Assembly: GCA_040217195.1 (NCBI GenBank)
Contig: JAVJNR010000008.1
Location: 512,001-576,000 of the forward strand
Length of the DNA stretch: 64,000 bases
DNA from: Leptospiraceae bacterium
GTDB taxonomy: Bacteria > Spirochaetota > Leptospiria > Leptospirales > Leptonemataceae
Reading direction: 5' to 3'
Below are positions 33,707 to 44,938 of this stretch, piece after piece. Made by a program: the position numbers and the translations under genes. The notes beneath the pieces were generated by a model. That model saw only the letters and a list, made by a program, of their open reading frames with translations, did not search any database and was not told where the DNA came from. Each line of letters starts with the position of its first letter. Within the stretch, counting starts at the first letter, position 1.

Positions 33707-34279
33707 ATGGCACCTCTTCTAAGAATCGCAAAGAAGCACGGAATCAAATTTGTATTACTCTTCGCTTTAATCGGCGCATTTGTGTACTTGTACGGAGTTA
33801 ATCCGAAGTATCAGGGATACGCTGCCGATCAACCCATCCCATTCAGCCACAAGATACATGCTGGGGAGCTTGGCGTAGACTGCCAGTTCTGCCACACTAG
33901 TGTGGACAAGAGTGCGATGGCAAGCGTACCGGACACAGCAACCTGTATGAAATGTCATGCATACGTTGCCTCCGACAGTCCGGATATTCAATACCTCCGA
34001 AAAACCTATGAAAAAGGGATCCCCATGCGCTGGAATAAAGTGCATGACCTCCCTGACCATGCAAAGTTTTCGCATAAGGTTCACATTGCCCGTGGCTATG
34101 ACTGCGCTCAATGCCATGGAAACGTTGCTGAAATGGACAAGGTGGAAGTAACCAGCGAGTTTAACATGGGCTGGTGTGTTAACTGCCACCGAGACCAGGC
34201 CAAGCAAATGAACCTGGATAAGGAGCCTGGAGGCAATCATAGCCTGGGCATTACCGACTGTAGCACCTGTCATTATTGA
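33707..34279 (+). CDS. actA: alternative complex III pentaheme cytochrome c subunit
   Basis: One TM; QPIPFSHKIH; five CxxCH (CQFCH, CMKCH, CAQCH, CVNCH, CSTCH); ATG 33707 with AAAGGG. Confidence 0.92.
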   Translation: MAPLLRIAKKHGIKFVLLFALIGAFVYLYGVNPKYQGYAADQPIPFSHKIHAGELGVDCQFCHTSVDKSAMASVPDTATCMKCHAYVASDSPDIQYLRKTYEKGIPMRWNKVHDLPDHAKFSHKVHIARGYDCAQCHGNVAEMDKVEVTSEFNMGWCVNCHRDQAKQMNLDKEPGGNHSLGITDCSTCHY

Positions 34280-34311
34280 GATCACTGGAAGGATCGACCT
34301 GGTTGGATTTC

Positions 34312-37300
34312 ATGGAAACAAAGAATAGAACTAGAAAATACTGGCAATCTCTGGAAGAGAGGAACGCTCCTCCTGCAGAGAACTATAAAGAGCCCGAGTT
34401 TGGCATGTCCAAGAATGAGATGGTTGCCGAACTCAAAAAGAAGCCCGTAAGCCGGAAGAACTTCCTCAAATTTATGGGTGCAGGCGCCGTTCTGGTGCAA
34501 GCCGCATGCCGCCGGCCCACCGAGCAAATCGTACCGGCTGTAATCCGACCGCCCGAGGATATTCCGGGCGAAGCAAACTATTACTCCACAGTAGCTCCCG
34601 ATGGAACCGGCCTGGTGGTTCGGACTTCGAATGCAAGGCCAAACAAGATTTCGGGAAACCCGGAACATCCGCTGACTAAAGGCGGAGTATCCAGTTATGA
34701 TGTGGCCAGCATTATGGATCTTTATGATCCTGATCGTCTGCGCAAGCCAGCCAGGCTTACGAACAGGAAAAAGAAACGAGCTTCCCGGGATGCCCTTATT
34801 TCCGAACTGCAAACCGAGATTAAGAAAGGCGATTATGTCCTGCTAACCGGTCCAATAGATAGTCCCACAAGCAAGAAGCTAATTCGAGACTTTCTAAACG
34901 CTAATCCCGGCGGAAAGCATGTAGAGTTTCGCGCGGACCCAACTCTTCGTCAAATCGCAGAGGGTCAGCGGGCCTCTTACGGCGAAGCACTGATTCCCTA
35001 CTATCGATTTGACCGTGCCAACCTTGTTCTGGCCATCGATGCAGACTTTCTGGGAACCATGGGATTCCCGGCCGCTCATACGGCGGATTTCACCAGCCGT
35101 AGGGATCCTACAAAAGGAAAACCGGCCAGGCTCATCGCCATTGAATCGATGTTCAGTCTTACAGGTTCCAACGCCGATATGCGAATCCCTGTTAAACCAG
35201 GGGATCAAACATCGGTAGCATTATCTCTGGCCGCGCACATTACCCTGAACCTTAAAGTGGGTCCTTATACTGGAAATGCCCAGGTCCGCGGACTTCTGGA
35301 GAACTACACTCCTGAACGAGTGGCCGAGGTGCTGAAACTGGAGCAAACAGCTCTGGAAAAAACAGCGGAAGAACTATGGTCCAATCGAGGGAAAGGACTG
35401 GTCCTGGGTGGATCGCCCTTGGCCGCCACCGGCCGTCAGGCAGCTCTTGGAATTGCCGTAAGTCTGCTAAATGACATTTGTGGCAACGACGGTATCACCG
35501 TAGACTACCGCAACTCATTGAACTACTCTGTAGGCATCTCTGCACCGGATATGCTATCTCTGCTGGCGGACTGTAAGGCGGGTAAAATCAAAACCCTGAT
35601 TGTGTCCGGCGCGAATATTCAGTATCATTTACCGGCCAGTGCTCAGGTAAAAGAGGCTCTGGCAGCCGTTCCATACGTTGCATCGATCAGCGATCGTATC
35701 GATGAAACGGCTAAACTTGGAAATGCAGTGCTTCCACTGAGTCATTTCCTGGAATCCTGGGGTGACCGAGAGGTAATCGGTGGTATTGCTGCCATTCAGC
35801 AGCCGACGGTTCGTCCCATCTTTGACTCTGCCAGCCTGGAAGACTATCTGATTCAAATCAGTGGTGGCACCCTGGGTGGATCTTCTGATTATCATAGCTA
35901 TTTGAAAGCGGCCTGGGCCGGACGTGGAGGCGCCAACTTCCAGAACTTCTGGGTGAAGATACTCCAGGACGGATTCTATGCTCCGGATGCTGGTAAGCTG
36001 AACGGAAATGCTCCAGCCCGTCGATTCAATGCAGGTTCTTTGAATAATCTGCCCAGAAGTGTGGATGAGAAGGACGGTCTGAAACTGGGTCTATTCATGG
36101 GAGTAGCCGTTCGAGACGGAAGTCAGGCAAACAATGCGTATCGCCTGGAACTTCCTGATCCAGTGACCAAGATCGTCTGGGAAAACTATGCTGCCATTCT
36201 TCCTTCTACGGCTCGCAAACTAAAACTGAAGCAAGGCTCTATTGTAAAAGTCAAATCAGGGGAAACCACTCTGGAACTTCCGGTGCACATGCAACCCGGT
36301 CTGCATCCGGATGCAGTACTGGTGGCCCTGGGCTACGGTCGCACGGAAGCAGGTAAGGTGGGCAACGACCGTGGTGTGAATGCCATTTCAGTGGCTACCA
36401 CCGGTGATGATTCTCTCACTCTTTCCGGTCATACGGTCACTCTGGAAAACACCGGAGACCGAAAGACTCTGGGCAATACTCAAACCGTGTATCGTACTGG
36501 AATGAATGAGCCAGACAACTTTCCTGGCATCTCCGACGATATTCCTTACGCTCCTTTTGCTGGCTCAACTCAGTATACCAAAGAGCAACGGCCCATCATT
36601 ATGGAAGCCAGCTATAGCGAGTATAGCAAAGCGAAGGGCTTCCTGAATGAGTATACTGTAAAGCATCCTCAAAATGCACAGCTCATGGAAGCCTGGAAGT
36701 ATGAGAACCTCCGCTGGCATATGGTGGTGGATCTCTCCAAATGTACAGGTTGCGGTTCCTGTGTGACCAGCTGTAATCTTGAAAATAATATTCCTATGGT
36801 TGGCCCGGAAGAGGTATCTGTAGGTAGAGAAATGCACTGGTTGCGAATCGACCGCTATTACAGCGGATCGGAAGAAAACCCCGCGGTAAGCCATCAGCCC
36901 ATGCTATGCCAGCAGTGCGAGAATGCTCCCTGCGAAAATGTATGCCCTGTGGCAGCTACCACCCATAATTCGGAAGGTCTAAATGTAATGACCTATAACC
37001 GTTGTGTAGGAACCAGATACTGCGCCAACAACTGCCCCTACAAAGTGCGCCGCTTTAACTGGTTTGAGAACTGGTATTATATGGAAGGTCTGGAGCGCAA
37101 ACTCCGTGATCCAATGCAGCTGGGACTGAACCCCAACGTAACCGTTCGATCCAGAGGGGTTATGGAGAAGTGTACTTTCTGCGTGCAAAGGATTAATGCG
37201 GCTCGCCAGGATATGAAAGTCCGGGGCGATAAAAGAATCAAAGATGGCACGGTAGTAACGGCCTGTCAGGAAGTTTGCGGTGCTGGAGCCATCACATTCG

Positions 37301-37434
37301 GCGACATCAACGATAAATCCTCGGCTGTATATCAGCTGGCTGAAAAAGACAAGAGAAGATACCGCGTCCTGGATTTTCTGGGTGTGGCACCTTCGGTGAC
37401 CTATCTTGCGAAGATTCGCAATCCCATGGCTTAA
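34312..37434 (+). CDS. actB: alternative complex III molybdopterin-oxidoreductase-like/Fe-S subunit
   Basis: YWQSLEE leader, Tat-like SRKNFLK, lipobox AAC; LYDPDR; Fe-S motifs CTGCGSCVTSC, CQQCENAPCENVCP, CVGTRYCANNCP, CTFC..CQEVC. Confidence 0.95.
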   Translation: METKNRTRKYWQSLEERNAPPAENYKEPEFGMSKNEMVAELKKKPVSRKNFLKFMGAGAVLVQAACRRPTEQIVPAVIRPPEDIPGEANYYSTVAPDGTGLVVRTSNARPNKISGNPEHPLTKGGVSSYDVASIMDLYDPDRLRKPARLTNRKKKRASRDALISELQTEIKKGDYVLLTGPIDSPTSKKLIRDFLNANPGGKHVEFRADPTLRQIAEGQRASYGEALIPYYRFDRANLVLAIDADFLGTMGFPAAHTADFTSRRDPTKGKPARLIAIESMFSLTGSNADMRIPVKPGDQTSVALSLAAHITLNLKVGPYTGNAQVRGLLENYTPERVAEVLKLEQTALEKTAEELWSNRGKGLVLGGSPLAATGRQAALGIAVSLLNDICGNDGITVDYRNSLNYSVGISAPDMLSLLADCKAGKIKTLIVSGANIQYHLPASAQVKEALAAVPYVASISDRIDETAKLGNAVLPLSHFLESWGDREVIGGIAAIQQPTVRPIFDSASLEDYLIQISGGTLGGSSDYHSYLKAAWAGRGGANFQNFWVKILQDGFYAPDAGKLNGNAPARRFNAGSLNNLPRSVDEKDGLKLGLFMGVAVRDGSQANNAYRLELPDPVTKIVWENYAAILPSTARKLKLKQGSIVKVKSGETTLELPVHMQPGLHPDAVLVALGYGRTEAGKVGNDRGVNAISVATTGDDSLTLSGHTVTLENTGDRKTLGNTQTVYRTGMNEPDNFPGISDDIPYAPFAGSTQYTKEQRPIIMEASYSEYSKAKGFLNEYTVKHPQNAQLMEAWKYENLRWHMVVDLSKCTGCGSCVTSCNLENNIPMVGPEEVSVGREMHWLRIDRYYSGSEENPAVSHQPMLCQQCENAPCENVCPVAATTHNSEGLNVMTYNRCVGTRYCANNCPYKVRRFNWFENWYYMEGLERKLRDPMQLGLNPNVTVRSRGVMEKCTFCVQRINAARQDMKVRGDKRIKDGTVVTACQEVCGAGAITFGDINDKSSAVYQLAEKDKRRYRVLDFLGVAPSVTYLAKIRNPMA

Positions 37435-37456
37435 TTAGAAAAGGGACAAACTAGAA

Positions 37457-38851
37457 ATGGCCAATAATACAGAAACCCTGGAAAAAGTAGAACTCGTACA
37501 AGGTAATAAGAGCTACGGCGATGTTAATCAGGACATTACACGCCCTCTTGATACATTTCCCGAGAAATGGTGGTGGGGCGCTTTTGCAGTAGCTCTGGGC
37601 CTACTGACCCTGCTGATTGTGGAAATCGGCTATTTGATCGCAGTCGGCATGGGCGTAGTTGGTGTGAACGTTCCGGTAAGCTGGGGTTCCTTTATTATCA
37701 CGTTCGTTTTCTGGATCGGTATTGGACATGCCGGTACATTGATTTCTGCAATTCTGTATATTTTCCGACAGGAATGGAGAACGGCTGTAAACCGTTCCGC
37801 TGAAGCCATGACAATCTTTGCCGTGGCCTGTGCAGGTATTTATCCGCTAATTCACGTTGGTCGCCCCTGGTTTACATTCTGGTTGTTTCCTTACCCGAAT
37901 GAAAGAGGAACTCTCTGGCCAAACTTCCGTTCTCCGCTTCTGTGGGACCTATTTGCTATTTCTACATATTTGACCATCTCCCTGGTATTCTGGTACATGG
38001 GACTGATTCCTGACTTTGCTTCCGTTCGGGACAAAATCAAAGGCGGGGAATGGTTCAACAAGTTGCGAAAGAACCTCTATTCCGTGCTGTCTATGGGCTG
38101 GGTGGGCTCCGCCCGAGCCTGGTCGCATTATGAAACCACAGCTATGATTCTGGCTGGTCTTTCTGCACCACTGGTTCTTTCCGTTCACACAATTGTATCT
38201 TTTGACTTCGCCACCTCCGTAATTCCTGGATGGCACACCACAATCTTCCCGCCCTACTTTGTGGCCGGGGCGATTTTCTCCGGATTCGGAATGGTGCTTA
38301 CTCTCCTGATCCTCATGCGTGAGCTGTTTGGCTTTAAAGAATACATCACCGTAAAACACCTGGAGAATATGGCCAAGATTACCATGCTCACCGGGACACT
38401 GGTGGGTCTGGCCTATGCCACGGAGTTCTTTATCGCATGGTATTCCGGCTCCAAGTTTGAAGGTTTCGCATTCATCAACCGGATGCTCGGGCCTTACTGG
38501 TGGTCCTACTGGATCATGGTATCCTGTAATGTAATTTCCCCGCAGCTATTCTGGTTCAAGAAAATCCGGACCAATCCTGCAGCACTGTGGATTATCAGTA
38601 TCTTCGTAAACATCGGAATGTGGTTCGAGCGTTACGTGATTGTAGTAACCAGTCTGCATAGGGACTACCTCCCTTCGAGCTGGGATCTATATATCATGAC
38701 GATTCATGACTTTGGAATTCTAATTGGTTCCTTTGGATTGTTTTTCACTCTGTTCCTGCTCTTCATGAGGTTCTTTCCTACCATCGCTATGGCAGAGATT
38801 AAAACAGTAATGAAAAGCCCTGGAGCCCGTGGCTACGGCGGAGGCCATTAA
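37457..38851 (+). CDS. actC: alternative complex III quinol-binding NrfD/PsrC-family subunit
   Basis: [58 protein letters not shown]. Confidence 0.96.
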
Positions 38852-38875
38852 TCCAGAACTATCTGGCAGGTAATT

Positions 38876-39565
38876 ATGGAAAAGCTAAACGCTATGACAG
38901 AAAAACTGGAACAATTCTTTGACCGGTTCTTTGAGAAGCAATACGTAGCCTTCCGGAACATTCTGGACAAGGCTTTCGAATACACTTACCGGGAAACCGA
39001 AAAGGGAGTATTCGGACTGTTCAACACACCGGAGCAAATCTCGGATGCTGCAAAGAAAACAAAAGAAAAGGGATTTACGAACTTCGATTGCCTGACTCCA
39101 TTTCCGGTGCACGGCCTGGAGTTTGACATGGGCTTCAAACGCTCCAGGCTCCCTTACGTAACATTCTTTGCAGGACTCACCGGGTTCACCATTGCATTCC
39201 TGCTCCAATTCATCGTACATGAGCAGGTGATCAATTATACCATTACCCGCGCCATCGATGCATACCCGAACCTGAACTCCTATCCTCTGAATATTGGTGG
39301 GAAACCTACTTATAGTTGGCCGGCCATGATTCCTATCTGCTTTGAGCTAACTATTCTTTTTGGCGGACTGGCAACGGTGGCTGGATTGTTTATGATTTCC
39401 CGAATCCCCAGGCCATTCCGGAGGATTCTGCATCCTTCTATTACTGATGATAAATTCTGTCTCTGGATCCCGGAAGACTCAGCCAACTACGATGAAGAAG
39501 GCGTGAAGTCCTTTCTTCAAGAAATGGGTGCTGAGGAAATCACTTCGGTTAAGGAGTCGGCGTAG
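38876..39565 (+). CDS. actD: alternative complex III subunit D (DUF3341)
   Basis: TPFPVHGL, NIGGKP..SWPAMIPICFELTILF, TDDKF. Confidence 0.93.
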   Translation: MEKLNAMTEKLEQFFDRFFEKQYVAFRNILDKAFEYTYRETEKGVFGLFNTPEQISDAAKKTKEKGFTNFDCLTPFPVHGLEFDMGFKRSRLPYVTFFAGLTGFTIAFLLQFIVHEQVINYTITRAIDAYPNLNSYPLNIGGKPTYSWPAMIPICFELTILFGGLATVAGLFMISRIPRPFRRILHPSITDDKFCLWIPEDSANYDEEGVKSFLQEMGAEEITSVKESA

Positions 39566-39577
39566 CCCGGAAATACC

Positions 39578-40219
39578 ATGATCGACAAGGCAACGAATAT
39601 GAATCCCGTTTCCCGCATTATTACTCTGGCCATCTCTTCTGTGGCACTTGTGTTCGTAGCACAGTGCAATTTCGCAGGGAATCAGTCCGGTATCCATTTC
39701 TTTCTGGATATGCATGATTCTCCGGCAGTAGAATCCCAGGAAGAGGATCCCAGCACCCTGGATGAAGCTTACGAAGGTAACTACGAAAAAACCATGGGCT
39801 CGCTGGAATCCTGGGGCGGTCCGGGCTCCACGGCTCGTACAGCTCCAGAAGGCACTGTGCCCAGGAACAAAACACCGTATTTGATTCCGGCCGCAGACTT
39901 TGATCAGGCTGCGAAAATGAATAACCCGCTGCGCCCTACCAAAGAGGTGCTTGAACTGGGTCAGAAGAAATACAATACGTATTGTGCCGTTTGCCATGGC
40001 AACACCGGCATGGGCGATGGACCGGTAACTCCGCGATTCGCTGATATTCCTGCTCTGGTAGGAGACGAATCACTGGTACTGAACTGGGAAGACGGTAGAA
40101 TCTTCCATATCATTACCGTTGGCCGAGCCCGTATGCGGCCTTATGCAGCTCAGACTACAGAAAAAGAGCGATGGGCCATCATTCATTATATAAATCTGCT
40201 TCAGAAGCAGGGACAGTAG
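39578..40219 (+). CDS. actE: alternative complex III monoheme cytochrome c lipoprotein
   Basis: Lipobox VAQC, DMHDSP, PEGTVPR, CAVCHG, RMRPYA, ERWAIIHYI. Confidence 0.93.
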   Translation: MIDKATNMNPVSRIITLAISSVALVFVAQCNFAGNQSGIHFFLDMHDSPAVESQEEDPSTLDEAYEGNYEKTMGSLESWGGPGSTARTAPEGTVPRNKTPYLIPAADFDQAAKMNNPLRPTKEVLELGQKKYNTYCAVCHGNTGMGDGPVTPRFADIPALVGDESLVLNWEDGRIFHIITVGRARMRPYAAQTTEKERWAIIHYINLLQKQGQ

Positions 40220-40237
40220 AAACAGGAACGATTATCT

Positions 40238-41479
40238 ATGGCAGCAAATCTGGAACAGGACAAACTGAAGTTTGAATTCCCTCCCCGGCTGAAGCAAATC
40301 AGTCTGGCTTTGATAGCGCTGGGACTGATTCTCACAGTGGCGCAGATTTTCGTACCCTGGCACGGTCATGGAGAGCATGTGCCGGGACACAACCCCAGAC
40401 TATTTCTTTCTATCCTCCTGGCTGTTCTGGTATTCTTACCTGTGGCTGTGGGCGGTATCTATTTCACGGCCCTGCATCATGCATCCGGCGCGGCCTGGAG
40501 TGTATCTGTACGGCGAATCGCAGAATCCTATTTCTGGTTTTTGCCTGTAATTCTTCTGGCTCTAGTCGCAGTATTCTTTGGACTCGGTGATGCGTATCAC
40601 CACTGGGTGGGAAAAGCTGCAGAAGACGAACTGATTCAATGGAAAGCTCCGTATCTGGATCAGACTTTCTTCATTGTAAGAAATCTTATTATCATCGGAA
40701 TCTGGATTTTCTTTGGCCTTCTATTCTGGAAGAAATCCACAGCCCAGGACAATGATGGAAAGGTATCTCATACCAAATCCATGATCAAATGGTCCGCAGG
40801 ATTTCTAGTTCTTTTTGGTCTTACATTCTCCGTTAGCTCCTGGGATCTTTCCATGAGTCTGGAGCCTCACTGGTTTTCTACAATGTGGGCCGTCTACATT
40901 TTCGCAGGTCTTGCTCTAACAACATTCGCATCCCTGATTCTCTGGGTGAACTATCTGAAAGGCCGGGGACTACTGGGCGATGCAGTGAATGAAAATCATA
41001 TTCACGATCTGGGAAAATATCTATGGGGCCATACGATCTTCTGGGCCTACATTGGAATCTGTCAGTATCTTCTGATCTGGTACGCACATATTCCAGAAGA
41101 GACCTACTTTTACAACAATCGACTGTTCACAGATGAAATGGGCTTCAACTCCTGGAGCTGGGTAAGCCTGGGACTTCTGGTTCTTCGATTCTTTATTCCT
41201 TTTTTCGCACTGCTAAAACGTGAGAACAAACGTAATATTAAGTTTCTGTCTGTCATCGCCTGGATTGTAATTCTGGGACAGATCGTAGATATGTACTGGG
41301 TGGCCTACCCAACCCTGGAACATGATGCTTCATTTGTCATGTTTTCCTGGCAAGAACTGGGCCCCCTTCTGGCGCTGGGTGGAGCTTTCATATTCGTTGT
41401 GGGCTCTGCTCTAACAAGAGCTAACCTGGTGCCTGTAAAGGATCCCAAGCTGGAAGAATGTCTGCACATGCACCAATAG
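40238..41479 (+). CDS. actF: alternative complex III membrane subunit F
   Basis: WSVSVRRIAE, WDLSMSLEPHWFSTMW, HIHDLGK, QYLLIWYAHIPEET. Confidence 0.93.
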   Translation: MAANLEQDKLKFEFPPRLKQISLALIALGLILTVAQIFVPWHGHGEHVPGHNPRLFLSILLAVLVFLPVAVGGIYFTALHHASGAAWSVSVRRIAESYFWFLPVILLALVAVFFGLGDAYHHWVGKAAEDELIQWKAPYLDQTFFIVRNLIIIGIWIFFGLLFWKKSTAQDNDGKVSHTKSMIKWSAGFLVLFGLTFSVSSWDLSMSLEPHWFSTMWAVYIFAGLALTTFASLILWVNYLKGRGLLGDAVNENHIHDLGKYLWGHTIFWAYIGICQYLLIWYAHIPEETYFYNNRLFTDEMGFNSWSWVSLGLLVLRFFIPFFALLKRENKRNIKFLSVIAWIVILGQIVDMYWVAYPTLEHDASFVMFSWQELGPLLALGGAFIFVVGSALTRANLVPVKDPKLEECLHMHQ

Positions 41480-41505
41480 GAATGTTTAGAGGGAAAGCGA
41501 AAGAG

Positions 41506-42075
41506 ATGCAATCCAACAAGTATATCATATCTGGAATCCTGATTCTGGCAGCAGCGGCCTGCGGAAAGGAGCCTGCGCCCATCTACAAGGCAACTGCAGA
41601 CAGCCTGTACAATGGATCTGTCTACTACGCAAGTTCCGAGTACAACTGCAAGAGTTGCCATGGCATCGCCTGGGATGGCAATGGCCCGGAAGCAAAAGGC
41701 CTGAAAGAACAGGGAATTGAAGTACCTTCTTTTACAGATGCCACCTCCCCGGAAGTAACTCCCGTGGATTATTTCAAGGCCATGACCGTAGGAACTGAAA
41801 AGACCACTGATCTTCCTTCAGGCCATGCGTATCAATCCCATACAGACCGGGGACGTTGGGCCATGGCTCATTACCTGTATTCTCTGGCTCCTCCGGTTTC
41901 TTCCAAAGACAAGGCCAAACGCGAAGAAGCCATCCATGCAGCCATGGAAGAGGTTAAGCAAGCCTATGCCAGCAGTCGTCGCTGGAATATGGGTTTCACT
42001 CCGCTAAAGGAAAGACCTCAACCTCCCAAACTTGAAGAGATGAGTGGATTCAATCCTGCACCGGCAGAAGAGTAA
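41506..42075 (+). CDS. monoheme cytochrome c lipoprotein
   Basis: Lipobox AAAC; CKSCHG..GNGPEA; RWAMAHYLYSL class I C-terminal helix. Confidence 0.88.
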   Translation: MQSNKYIISGILILAAAACGKEPAPIYKATADSLYNGSVYYASSEYNCKSCHGIAWDGNGPEAKGLKEQGIEVPSFTDATSPEVTPVDYFKAMTVGTEKTTDLPSGHAYQSHTDRGRWAMAHYLYSLAPPVSSKDKAKREEAIHAAMEEVKQAYASSRRWNMGFTPLKERPQPPKLEEMSGFNPAPAEE

Positions 42076-42099
42076 GGCAAACAGGAATCGATCATAACT

Positions 42100-43584
42100 A
42101 TGAAACTACTGAGTAACGACTACAATCGAACAACAGGGCTTTATCTGATCATCTCCACTCTATGGCTCCTTCTGGGCGTTGCCATCCGCGTGGTGAACGA
42201 GATTCAGATGATCACCTTCATGCCCGGACCGGATTCCTATTTTTCCTACGGATATCTTCGTCCGGTGGGTTCCAATCTGCTGATCTTTGGCGGATTGCTG
42301 GGCTACTTTTTCGCCCTTGGATATCAAATCATTCATGCTAGAGCAGGCTTTCGCATTGACCTGGCAGGTCTTGCAGCCCTGGGAGCTCATCAAACGGCCC
42401 TTCTATTTGGAATAATTACCATCTTTGCTGGCTACAATTCCGGTCGAGAATATGGTGAGCTGAACTGGATCGCCGACAACCTGATGATGGTTGTATTCAC
42501 TGTATTTCTGGTCCTACTACTAATTGCACTATGGGGCAAAGAAGATCTAAAGGCCTATGAAAAGCTTACGGCTGCTACCATAGGCGGGATGATGGTTTTC
42601 TATTTCCTGGGTAACTTTGGCATGCCCAATGGTCTTCTGGTGACCACGGCCCCAACATCCGGAGCCCAGGATGCTCTGGTTGCTGAAATGTATCGGAACG
42701 CAGTGCTTACGTTCTTCATTCTGTTCCCTCTGTTTACTATGGGATACTACTGGCTGGAAAAGCATTATGAACTTCCGGTATTCAGTGAGGCCACGGTACA
42801 TTTTCAGATCCTGGCCGGAGCTGTGATGGTGCCTGTGGCCGCCGGTGGCACTTTACTGGGCACAGCCGATGCCAAAATTCTGCAGTATGTGGGCACTGGT
42901 GCAGCCCTGGCTCTGACCATGTCTTTGCTTGCGGGAGTAGCCAATATTCATTATTCTCTGTCTCGAAGCGGTAAGATCATTGAGTCCGACCAGGATGGAA
43001 AAGCTCTTCGCTGGGGTCTGATTCTGGTGGGTGTTTACCTTGCGGTCCGATTTGTGCTACAGATTCCTCTGATTGGATCTGACTTTCGCTACATGGCCTG
43101 GAATAACCAGGACCTGTATTCTCTGGCCGCCACGGCAGTACTACCTCTGGCCCTGGCATCAGCCTATTTGCTGCTGGGCTACTGGAAACAAGCTTCCACT
43201 CCTTCGAAGCTAAAGTCCTTCGGTAATTTCTTTCTCTATACTGGTATCATAACCTTTCTGGGTGCAGCGCTGACCCAGGGTTGGATTCAGGCCCTGAATG
43301 CTTCTTCGCTGGCCGGAGAAGGCGCAGAAAAAGCTCTGGAAAATCCAGCCTGGGCACAGGTTCTCTTCGCAGGTAGCCTGGAATCAGAAGTAGGAAAGGA
43401 TGCACTATTCAGTTATCTGTATTCTGTATATGGATTTGTATTAATCGGGCTAATCATGACTTTTATCGGTGCTCTGGCCGGCGTTTTGGCCGTGCTGGCA
43501 GGTTTGTCCGGAAAAGCGGCGGCTTATAGTCGCCCGAGCATGGTGAGTGAGGCCCCGGTGGCCCAGTCTGCCCAATCGCATTGA
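42100..43584 (+). CDS. cbb3-type oxidase subunit I (CcoN) homolog lacking all heme and CuB ligand histidines
   Basis: About 12 TMs; CcoN-like SYGYLRP, REYGELNW, GAQDALV, YYW..K...PVFS, VHF; ligand positions read G, N, GT, DLY. Confidence 0.85.
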   Translation: MKLLSNDYNRTTGLYLIISTLWLLLGVAIRVVNEIQMITFMPGPDSYFSYGYLRPVGSNLLIFGGLLGYFFALGYQIIHARAGFRIDLAGLAALGAHQTALLFGIITIFAGYNSGREYGELNWIADNLMMVVFTVFLVLLLIALWGKEDLKAYEKLTAATIGGMMVFYFLGNFGMPNGLLVTTAPTSGAQDALVAEMYRNAVLTFFILFPLFTMGYYWLEKHYELPVFSEATVHFQILAGAVMVPVAAGGTLLGTADAKILQYVGTGAALALTMSLLAGVANIHYSLSRSGKIIESDQDGKALRWGLILVGVYLAVRFVLQIPLIGSDFRYMAWNNQDLYSLAATAVLPLALASAYLLLGYWKQASTPSKLKSFGNFFLYTGIITFLGAALTQGWIQALNASSLAGEGAEKALENPAWAQVLFAGSLESEVGKDALFSYLYSVYGFVLIGLIMTFIGALAGVLAVLAGLSGKAAAYSRPSMVSEAPVAQSAQSH

Positions 43585-43603
43585 GACCAAGGAAACGAAC
43601 GAT

Positions 43604-44272
43604 ATGAATTCTCCGTTCAAAACAGTATCTTCTACCGTTGTTACCACCGTGGTGGCCGGGCTTGTTGCTTTCGCAGCCAGTATCGTGCTACCATTTGGAG
43701 CTCCCGATTTGCATGGAAAGCACCAGTATACGCAAGCTCCTGAAGACATTCTGGTTCTAAAAGGTCAGGAAGTCTACTATCAGGAAGGATGCCAGTACTG
43801 CCATAGCCAGGGAATTCGAGCCCAGGCCTGGGAGGTTCTGCGCTTTAGCGATACAGAAAAGCTGGGGTACTATCCAGCTCCCCAGAAGCAGGCAAATCTG
43901 TTTTTTACTCCTTCCGTGCAGGGCTCCACTCGCATTGGTCCTGATCTTTCGCACATTGGACTGAAGATGGATAAATCGGCGCTCAGGGCTCTGCTCCAGA
44001 GTGATCCGTATCAGAATCCCAGGAATCCTCAGTTTGATATGCGAACGGGAAATCATAACTACACGTATCTCTTCTCCCAGGATGAGCTGGATGCCCTGGC
44101 CCTGTCCTGGAAAGTGCGCTGGATGATGAACTTCGGCCTTCCGCTGAATGATCCCTATCAGCGCTCTGCATTCTCCAGACTGGAGGATCAGACTCGAGGA
44201 GATGCTCTGGTGGAATATCTGAACTTCCTGGGAAGCCGACAGGCTGCTTACGATGGAGAGTTCTACCAATAA
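43604..44272 (+). CDS. ccoO: cbb3-type oxidase subunit II (CcoO) homolog, monoheme
   Basis: GQEVYYQEGCQYCHSQGIR, GSTRIGPDLSHIG, DALVEYLNFLG; ATG 43604 with AAGGA. Confidence 0.88.
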   Translation: MNSPFKTVSSTVVTTVVAGLVAFAASIVLPFGAPDLHGKHQYTQAPEDILVLKGQEVYYQEGCQYCHSQGIRAQAWEVLRFSDTEKLGYYPAPQKQANLFFTPSVQGSTRIGPDLSHIGLKMDKSALRALLQSDPYQNPRNPQFDMRTGNHNYTYLFSQDELDALALSWKVRWMMNFGLPLNDPYQRSAFSRLEDQTRGDALVEYLNFLGSRQAAYDGEFYQ

Positions 44273-44326
44273 GATCTCAGTATTGAGGCTTATCAGTTTT
44301 CGACTTAGAAGGATCTGGCAAGAATT

Positions 44327-44830
44327 ATGAGTGATAATAGCAATAACAAAGCCGTACCGGGATGGGTGAATTTCCTTTTCTGGGGAGCGCTGGTGGGTGG
44401 CGTGATGGTTGCCATCTTCTCCCAGGGCTTTCTGAATCAGCCGGATGCTGTGACAGTTCGTGACCAGCTGGGTCAGCGATATGTGGTTCCCAGCATTGAT
44501 ATTATTCCAGTTCGAGATGCAGCCGCCATTGAAGCTGGAAAAGAAACCTACGGCCGAGTTTGTGTGGCCTGTCATGGTCTCAATCTGGAAGGTGGCGTTG
44601 GCCCCAACCTCTCTGACAATGAATGGTGGCATCAGCCAGCAGCAGAGACCAATCTGGCGAAACTGGTCATGAACGGTGTTAGCGCCGGTGAGGCTCTGGG
44701 CCCCAATAAGGTTCCCATGCCTGCTCGTGGTGGCCAGGCTTTATCCAATGAAGAAGTGTGGCAGGTTATATACTATATATCTGACCAGAACGGCTCCATT
44801 GAACAGGATGCTGTTCCAACGGCTCAGTAA
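44327..44830 (+). CDS. ccoP: cbb3-type oxidase subunit III (CcoP)-like monoheme cytochrome c
   Basis: N-terminal VPGW plus TM; CVACHG, GGVGPNLSDNEWWH, MPAR, LSNEEVWQVIYYI. Confidence 0.82.
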   Translation: MSDNSNNKAVPGWVNFLFWGALVGGVMVAIFSQGFLNQPDAVTVRDQLGQRYVVPSIDIIPVRDAAAIEAGKETYGRVCVACHGLNLEGGVGPNLSDNEWWHQPAAETNLAKLVMNGVSAGEALGPNKVPMPARGGQALSNEEVWQVIYYISDQNGSIEQDAVPTAQ

Positions 44831-44910
44831 CTTAGTAGGCTCAGTCAAATCGCATAAGAAGATCAAAATAGTCGCCAGGCCATTCTCCTGGCAGCAATGG
44901 GATCAAATTG

Positions 44911-44938
44911 AAAGCCGTGTTTTCTAGCACGGCTTTTT
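44911..44938 (+). terminator. intrinsic terminator closing the act-cco operon (possibly bidirectional with recJ)
   Basis: aaagccgtgt-tttcta-gcacggcttt followed by tt. Confidence 0.75.

Follow-up and report, generated by a model that had tools for sequence, protein, structure and literature searches.

A CcoN-like protein without heme-copper ligands is encoded behind alternative complex III across the Leptonema family

Alternative complex III (ACIII) is known from Rhodothermus marinus (6F0K), Flavobacterium johnsoniae (6BTM) and Chloroflexota (6LOD/8K9E). The R. marinus complex contains one [3Fe-4S] and three [4Fe-4S] clusters, and an oxidase gene cluster frequently follows the act genes (PMC5928083). 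Varied cytochrome c adaptors link ACIII to the oxidase (PMC5928083; PMC8552683): ActE passes electrons to the cytochrome c domain of the caa3 oxidase in R. marinus, and ActA has an extra cytochrome c domain in F. johnsoniae (PMC5928083). F. johnsoniae can do without ActE, and for its ACIII an electron path that divides at ActA/ActE was put forward; how electrons leave ACIII and what ActE does are treated there as unsettled (PMC8552683). Here we analyze an ACIII operon in a 64,000-nucleotide stretch (the window) of a Leptospiraceae bacterium genome (GCA_040217195.1, contig JAVJNR010000008.1, positions 512,001 to 576,000, forward strand). It encodes the same six core subunits as the known complexes, with five plus one c-hemes, four predicted Fe-S clusters and the ActC quinol-site residues, and it has an oxidase-derived cluster downstream. 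Unlike the known loci, the cluster behind the act genes is predicted to lack an O2-reducing metal site, and an additional lipoprotein cytochrome c, here called X7, is encoded between actF and a CcoN paralogue (pseudo-CcoN), which is followed by paralogues of CcoO and CcoP of cbb3 oxidases.

Pseudo-CcoN has lost every ligand of heme b, heme b3 and CuB. The positions that we take to be H60, H345, H347, Y251, E122 and E323 of Pseudomonas stutzeri CcoN, with the roles we presume for them, were located by alignment to 3MK7. Of the six ligand His of cbb3 oxidases, two serve low-spin heme b, three CuB and one heme b3; their positions are occupied by G57, N200, G250, T251, D338 and Y340, and the position of the cross-link Tyr by V244. 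In one alignment, none of the six His is kept in any of 23 family paralogues, versus six of six in all 18 real CcoN proteins, and both the helix-VII cross-link Tyr (Y251) and the E323 Glu are absent from all 23 pseudo-CcoN copies (numbering of H207, H257, H258 and W203 after PMC3578206). The replacements at ligand positions differ among copies, and the H60 position often holds a bulky Phe or Tyr. Along the K-channel-like path, Y223 occurs in 16/23 copies and S240 and H243 in one each (MAFFT). HMMER aligns His234 of the window protein with H243, yet no column among 55 distinct pseudo-CcoN rows exceeds 47% His, and no Met or Cys beyond the start is conserved; the ligands therefore have not been relocated within the protein.

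The fold, by contrast with the ligands, is predicted to be retained. An AlphaFold2 model (predicted local distance difference test, pLDDT, 84.5) has template modeling (TM) scores of 0.79-0.82 to 3MK7, 8SMR, 9G6B and 6XKW in Foldseek, and an Atlas search returned COX1 clusters only (0.92-0.94). By sequence, the only family match is to TIGR00780/NF011053, at 60.6 bits versus a cut-off of 583, and the best match to a solved CcoN chain has an E-value of 2.6e-12. Periplasmic loop motifs persist (Y50-G51-x-L53-R54-P55, G115-R116-E117-x-G119-E120, N172, P176, G188, D191 and W418). Two charged pairs are new: E196/R199 replaces W203/G206 in 42 of the 55 rows, and R317/D338 replaces G324/H345 in 36. We read these as putative salt bridges that hold the emptied metal site.

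So, is this an oxidase? The module shares with the cbb3 CcoNOP complexes of P. stutzeri (3MK7/5DJQ) and P. aeruginosa (8SMR) the 12-helix CcoN fold, the gene order N-O-P, loop motifs with the equivalents of R57, E122 and E125, and a monoheme CcoO. Unlike those complexes, it is linked to act genes, has no ccoQ or ccoGHIS, and is missing the ligands of heme b, b3 and CuB together with the cross-link Tyr and E323; the K-channel Ser and His are not conserved, and the distal Met of CcoO is replaced by His. Nitric oxide reductases (NORs) within the superfamily of heme-copper oxidases also differ: they hold hemes b/b3 and an FeB or variant site through His (and Glu/Asp), whereas pseudo-CcoN lacks the His ligands and the source genome has a separate norCB locus. 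The variant families gNOR, eNOR, sNOR, nNOR and a putative N2O reductase (PMC11214002) likewise have altered active sites without the cross-link Tyr, but they retain a metal site, whereas pseudo-CcoN has none of the six His. That account describes gNOR, with one His replaced, as the first family in which an active-site His is substituted (Murali et al. 2024). By these sequence features, the downstream module is neither a cbb3 oxidase nor a NOR. A first-pass annotation of the window had held that the oxidase core cannot bind its cofactors; this stands for hemes b and b3 and for CuB, but not for the c-hemes, since all three partner cytochromes (X7, CcoO and CcoP) retain CxxCH.

It is in these cytochromes that the module departs further from cbb3. 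His151 of the CcoO paralogue, found in 23/23 copies, aligns with the distal Met of 8SMR_F and 9G6B_B, and its heme is predicted to be bis-His ligated and of lower potential. X7 was initially described as a monoheme lipoprotein, which holds in the window, but X7 is diheme in 14 of 22 relatives. The lipobox Cys19 is present in 19/23 copies and His107 in 22/23; in the alignment, His107 falls on the Met of 6H5L_B, and four of these 22 copies have no Met within 70 residues past the heme motif. The second domain of the diheme forms has a His near its end, and in 8 of the 14 there is no Met past the motif. The X7 heme is thus also predicted to be bis-His. In Foldseek, the X7 model had no match at E ≤ 0.001; the best weak one was ActE 8K9E_E (E 0.2). 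In the CcoP paralogue, the distal Met is retained in 20/20 rows. Its single heme is no sign of decay, because the real CcoP of the source genome is a 182-aa monoheme protein and real CcoP is also monoheme in 17/17 relatives (176-207 aa in this order). In working cbb3 oxidases, electrons run from CcoP to CcoO to heme b. His/Met ligation is stated to raise the potential of a heme by ~150 mV (PMC11214002, in its account of the nNOR low-spin heme), and the predicted slope of the paralogues therefore runs from CcoO to CcoP, the reverse of a working cbb3.

How widespread is this arrangement? We fetched 40 loci around search hits, of which 22 carry the paralogue and 18 are real cbb3 loci. The order actF-X7-N-O-P is kept in all 22 paralogue loci, with a CcoN identity to the window of 24-89%; in each of them the module lies with act genes and never with cco genes. 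The whole of actA-F lies upstream in 19 of the 22; in the other three (L050, L053 and L054, one genus), the act operon is split, with actDEF-X7-N-O-P apart from actABC. Usual flanks are clpB and recJ, and no conserved regulator was found beside the operon. An X7 profile built from 23 of the 190 genomes of the class and run on all 190 matched 37/41 other family genomes, all 26 family genomes of good quality and 0/148 outside the family. Orthologue-level matches to the CcoO paralogue (E ≤ 8e-24, set at a score gap) occur in 36/41 family genomes and in none outside. Family genomes without a match are 54-91% complete or broken at the locus. In a sister family (f2), which we infer to be that of Leptospira, the act operon stops at actF in 5/5 genomes; f2 matches considered as pseudo-CcoN orthologues were rejected, as real CcoN was found in 12/12 loci fetched.

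Ratios of nonsynonymous to synonymous substitution (dN/dS; Nei-Gojobori, six within-genus pairs, with dS often >1 so that values are rough) are 0.028-0.073 for pseudo-CcoN, 0.034-0.116 for CcoO, 0.022-0.135 for CcoP and 0.025-0.142 for X7, close to the 0.007-0.134 of the act genes. The four-gene module is under purifying selection and is no relic. Thus neither a one-off arrangement nor neutral evolution, both of which the first-pass annotation had allowed for, describes the locus; act clusters followed by His-less ccoN occur throughout the Leptonema family, with a parallel case in Verrucomicrobiota. Among individual loci, one (L057, G008:C1:1189600-1207500) lies in a 1.9-Mb single-contig genome with the whole ten-gene operon and a SCO gene directly upstream of actA. 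At L055 (G021), ActB is encoded as two open reading frames (ORFs) of 793 and 251 aa (L055:10492-13661), through either a natural split or a sequence error, and a Tll0287-like heme protein is convergent after the operon.

In the Verrucomicrobiota, we fetched 67 loci, of which 64 encode a CcoN-like protein of ≥380 aa, and 58 of these 64 proteins have two or fewer of the His. The His-poor proteins are encoded behind actF in all 51 loci with enough upstream DNA, and coxA is in the locus in 20/58. The system resembles that of the Leptonema family in that actA-F is followed by a His-poor ccoN, then by ccoO and, in many cases, by a ccoP-like gene. It differs in that no X7 homologue was found (0/64 loci), the distal column of CcoO holds Met in 38/50 and His in 0/50, cox genes are often in the cluster, and the origin appears to be separate. 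An LG+C20 tree, built from 52 rows cut to the columns of the CcoN alignment, nests the Verrucomicrobial proteins in a clade of five-His CcoN (support 100) and groups the pseudo-CcoN of the Leptonema family, on a long branch, with canonical CcoN (support 100). An approximately unbiased (AU) test rejects a single clade (p 0.0007; 31 of the 52 rows, LG+G4, with a long-branch caveat). From these alignments, ligand-less CcoN behind ACIII appears to have arisen separately in the two groups, and X7 and the Met-to-His changes of CcoO and X7, new here, appear specific to the Leptonema family. In Verrucomicrobia literature, cbb3 genes linked to ACIII are taken to encode an oxidase (PMC6688271).

The five-His CcoN variant that is sister to the Verrucomicrobial ligand-less clade (L097, L113, L116, L145, L146 and L148; six columns aligned) includes one member behind an act cluster, L116, which may resemble the ancestral state. 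Two Verrucomicrobial CcoO proteins have a Cys beside the distal-Met position (L143:11466-12161 and L151:11430-12083), making a His/Cys heme possible in them.

Ligand loss also seems to be recurrent in CcoN more generally. Searching 1.84 billion representatives with a profile yielded 1211 matches at E ≤ 0.001. Among the best 150 of the 1211, 38 score >230 bits and all of these have zero or one of the six His; the remaining 112 include 32 in which the six columns are filled and no more than one His is present, and these belong to several other clades (31 short rows were dropped). Within P0047-P0158 there are many more CcoN proteins, and CcoN-CcoO fusions, that have between zero and four His and fall in separate clades, including a Pirellulaceae protein (P0141) and one from a Cobetia relative (P0080). 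Where did the Leptonema-family version come from? The CxxCH-to-GPDL spacing is 53 residues in both the CcoO paralogue and the family's real CcoO, versus 45 in several other CcoO. This common loop length suggests that pseudo-CcoN may have originated by duplication of the family's own cbb3, but a FastTree of CcoO places the paralogues elsewhere on a long branch and does not confirm it.

The six upstream genes make up an ACIII, by every feature tested (Table 1), as the first-pass annotation had recognized. The five CxxCH motifs of ActA recur in 19/19 relatives fetched. The 15 Cys of the ActB Fe-S domain fall into groups of 4+4+3+4, which fits a predicted three [4Fe-4S] clusters and one [3Fe-4S]. 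ActC retains H133, D164 and D250 in the alignment to F. johnsoniae 6BTM_C, residues matched by motif to R. marinus His139, Asp169 and Asp253 (PMC5928083). ActD and the invariant distal Met of ActE complete the set, and ActF orthologues are 49-93% identical.

Table 1. Features of the ACIII operon and its downstream module (window positions)
Feature	Position	Strand	Characteristics
actA, pentaheme cytochrome c	33707..34279	+	190 aa; one N-terminal membrane anchor; 5 CxxCH; QrcA-like NF041781, E 2e-24
actB, twin-arginine translocation (Tat) lipoprotein	34312..37434	+	Molybdopterin-like domain + Fe-S domain; TIGR04519 (Tat signal), QrcB/QrcC matches
actC, quinol-site membrane subunit	37457..38851	+	PF03916; 6BTM_C E 4e-176, 6F0K_C E 3e-174
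actD	38876..39565	+	PF11821, E 6.5e-54
actE, monoheme lipoprotein	39578..40219	+	Distal Met186 invariant, 27/27 rows
actF, ActC paralogue	40238..41479	+	After actE; ActC profile recovers ActF chains
X7, family-specific lipoprotein cytochrome c	41506..42075	+	Monoheme here; His107 at usual distal-Met position
pseudo-CcoN	42100..43584	+	12-helix heme-copper-oxidase fold; no heme b, b3 or CuB ligand
CcoO paralogue	43604..44272	+	PF02433; CxxCH intact; distal Met replaced by His151
CcoP paralogue, monoheme	44327..44830	+	PF13442; distal Met131 kept (His/Met)
Intrinsic terminator hairpin	44910..44937	+	12-bp stem, T tail; 3' of ccoP paralogue, before convergent recJ

The ten + strand ORFs (33707 to 44830) are separated by gaps of 32, 22, 24, 12, 18, 26, 24, 19 and 54 nt, in order, between a divergent clpB and the convergent recJ. 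The closing hairpin has a z-score of -4.89, and none of 200 shuffles was equally stable; the window has 18 terminator-like hairpins in total, the other 17 weaker, versus 11.6 ± 3.3 in shuffles. The initial description of ten co-oriented genes with gaps ≤54 nt and a terminator is thus borne out. An antisense ORF of 291 aa over the ccoO and ccoP paralogues (43757-44632, -) has no Pfam match and was set aside, being probably a shadow frame. A 292-aa diheme cytochrome c (PF00034/PF13442; 28219-29097, -) is encoded 4.6 kb upstream of actA, with clpB and a CmoB-like methyltransferase between them, and is a possible electron carrier.

Real terminal enzymes are encoded away from the operon. The source genome (G000) has an A-type SCO-coxBACD cluster on contig C4, whose CoxB has a cytochrome c domain, a full ccoNOQP-GH-dsbD-I cluster on C10, and norCB with norQD, encoding a cytochrome c-dependent NOR, on C1. 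The absence of ccoQ and ccoGHIS from the operon, to which the first-pass annotation had pointed, therefore says little alone, because ccoQ, ccoG, ccoH, a DsbD-like gene and ccoI are all at the real cbb3 locus. No bc1 cytochrome b or cytochrome bd was found in this 93.7% complete genome, so ACIII is probably its main quinol:cytochrome c route. Judging their sequences and CxxCH content by eye, we take C1:683018-684409 to be a NirK-cytochrome c fusion, C1:771713-773598 an NrfAH pair and C5:173562-174836 a diheme peroxidase-like protein. Across the family, real ccoN was found in 34/41 genomes. Four genomes have the module and an A-type oxidase with no real ccoN found (G008, one contig, 83%; G023, 91%; G031, 92%; G035, 94%), and two (G021 and G033) have the module and a cbb3 with no A-type found; the six genomes are 83-95% complete. 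The module is thus not tied to one oxidase type. In another genome, a second weak COX1 match (66 bits, 482-aa frame, G010:C75:8645-9811) lies beside a 593-aa heme-copper subunit and is possibly another degenerate paralogue.

What, then, could the module do? We think it somewhat probable that the catalytically dead pseudo-CcoN serves as a scaffold for the CcoO and CcoP hemes and, with X7, extends the heme wire of ACIII to terminal enzymes encoded elsewhere. ACIII would oxidize quinol and pass the electrons along ActA/ActE to the lipid-anchored X7, with its one or two predicted bis-His hemes. From there they would move to the heme of the CcoO paralogue, predicted to be of lower potential than in cbb3, and on to the His/Met heme of CcoP, which would in turn reduce NorC, a soluble cytochrome, the real cbb3 or, through its cytochrome c domain, caa3. 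The E196/R199 and R317/D338 pairs would stabilize the emptied site. If this model holds, the module's mode of action is most likely that of a tethered cytochrome c adaptor. ActE of R. marinus, the ActA domain of F. johnsoniae and cytochrome cy of the Rhodobacter capsulatus bc1-cbb3 system are likewise tethered cytochromes c that bypass soluble carriers, but the adaptor proposed here would be a pseudo-enzyme of several subunits that uses an entire oxidase chassis and has two to three hemes predicted to be bis-His. Of the functions proposed in the first-pass annotation, a scaffold or heme wire fits best, with a module that would be expressed and bound to ACIII. At least two origins adjoining ACIII also point to a job for the scaffold and its cytochromes in ACIII function.

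Several points weigh against a wire of this kind. The act operons of f2 lack the module in 5/5 cases, with real cbb3 genes still present, so it is not needed for ACIII as such. The CoxB of the source genome has its own cytochrome c domain, and in R. marinus that domain is reduced directly by ActE (PMC5928083), which makes the need for an extra wire doubtful. R. marinus ActE has a potential of +165 mV (PMC5928083), and if two or three hemes of predicted low potential come next, electron transfer could run uphill. As an anchor for CcoO and CcoP, which have membrane helices of their own, a 12-helix protein is costly. Heme ligation and potentials are derived from alignments alone, and the AU test in favor of separate origins used LG+G4 with pseudo-CcoN on a long branch.

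A different use of the same parts would be as a membrane spacer that organizes an ACIII-oxidase supercomplex, with the hemes as an electron buffer and not an obligatory wire. The modeled retention of the full 12-helix fold is consistent with this, as is the dead CcoN of Verrucomicrobiota, often found between act and cox genes (20/58 loci), and ACIII-oxidase supercomplexes are known (PMC5928083). A buffer, however, has no obvious need for an invariant change of heme ligand or for a dedicated extra cytochrome, and we regard the spacer as unlikely.

Also improbable, and ranked just after the spacer, is a quinone or other non-His cofactor in the emptied cavity beside the bis-His CcoO heme, through which the module would exchange electrons between ACIII and the quinone pool. 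Low-potential hemes after ActE may be uphill, and this keeps the idea alive. The family-specific Met-to-His changes in CcoO and X7 predict lower potentials, and conserved buried charges occupy former ligand positions. In the cbb3 structure 3MK7, moreover, the CcoO heme packs against the heme-b site. A split of the ACIII path at ActA/ActE, as proposed for F. johnsoniae (PMC8552683), would suit such a branch. However, pseudo-CcoN has no conserved His, Met or Cys, the bulky Phe or Tyr often found at the H60 position could fill the cavity, the charges come in opposite pairs, as for structural salt bridges, and CcoO of the Verrucomicrobial analogue has Met by column in 38/50 and His in none. A broader form of this reading, in which a heme-copper oxidase chassis was turned into a metal-free subunit at least twice behind ACIII and the Leptonema version, retuned to bis-His hemes, forms a low-potential branch with a second quinone site in the emptied heme cavity, a split path that would return electrons to the membrane, seems to us equally improbable.

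The module could instead act on the real cbb3, with the CcoO and CcoP paralogues as its alternative subunits or regulators and pseudo-CcoN as their chaperone or sink. The presence of real ccoN in most family genomes and the 53-residue spacing common to both kinds of CcoO would fit. Yet the four genomes with the module and no detectable real ccoN, and linkage to act and never to cco genes in 22/22 loci, make this quite improbable; the suggestion in the first-pass annotation of a partner that regulates a true oxidase or helps to assemble it is weakened accordingly for cbb3. Very improbable is a redox or oxygen sensor that reports ACIII electron flow to a signaling system: cbb3 oxidases have been linked to redox signaling in Rhodobacter, but here the flanks are usually clpB and recJ with no conserved regulator, and no gas-binding site is left. 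Least credible are an active O2 or NO reductase with non-histidine ligands, for which the one-His swap of some heme-copper families (gNOR, PMC11214002) and the label 'cbb3-type cytochrome oxidase subunit 1' on some copies could be cited but in which six His and the Tyr would all be gone and variably replaced, and a decaying pseudogene cluster, at odds with intact reading frames and dN/dS far below 1.

The module is real and under selection, and as a variant of ACIII-linked respiration it is apparently undescribed. We found no description of a ligand-less, ACIII-linked CcoN in the literature searched, in which subscription papers on ACIII clusters and heme-copper oxidase classification are incompletely covered, and the first-pass annotation's proviso that the system might already be characterized found no support there. 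The available parts of PMC3578206, PMC5492636, PMC13608581, PMC8361435, PMC7876108, bioRxiv 10.64898/2026.01.22.701106 and 10.1101/2024.01.15.574570 contain nothing on ligand-less CcoN. The six histidines of heme-copper oxidases are treated as near-invariant, and a fully ligand-less member under selection across a family would be a respiratory pseudo-enzyme. The Met-to-His switches make a sharp prediction about potentials and the direction of flow.

One locus (L043) encodes a pseudo-CcoN with the same sequence as Leptonema illini WP_002771968.1 (UniProt H2CCW8, 'uncharacterized protein'), and the question is therefore approachable at the bench. The name 'cbb3-type cytochrome oxidase subunit 1' is given by one source to this copy of L. 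illini, and at least 15 pseudo-CcoN copies of the family pass the Pfam COX1 cut-off; such genes can be miscounted as cbb3 oxidases in genome surveys. A word-index homologue search gave only nine matches and understated the range, and close homologues of the window protein are labeled Spirochaetaceae or Leptospiraceae bacterium.

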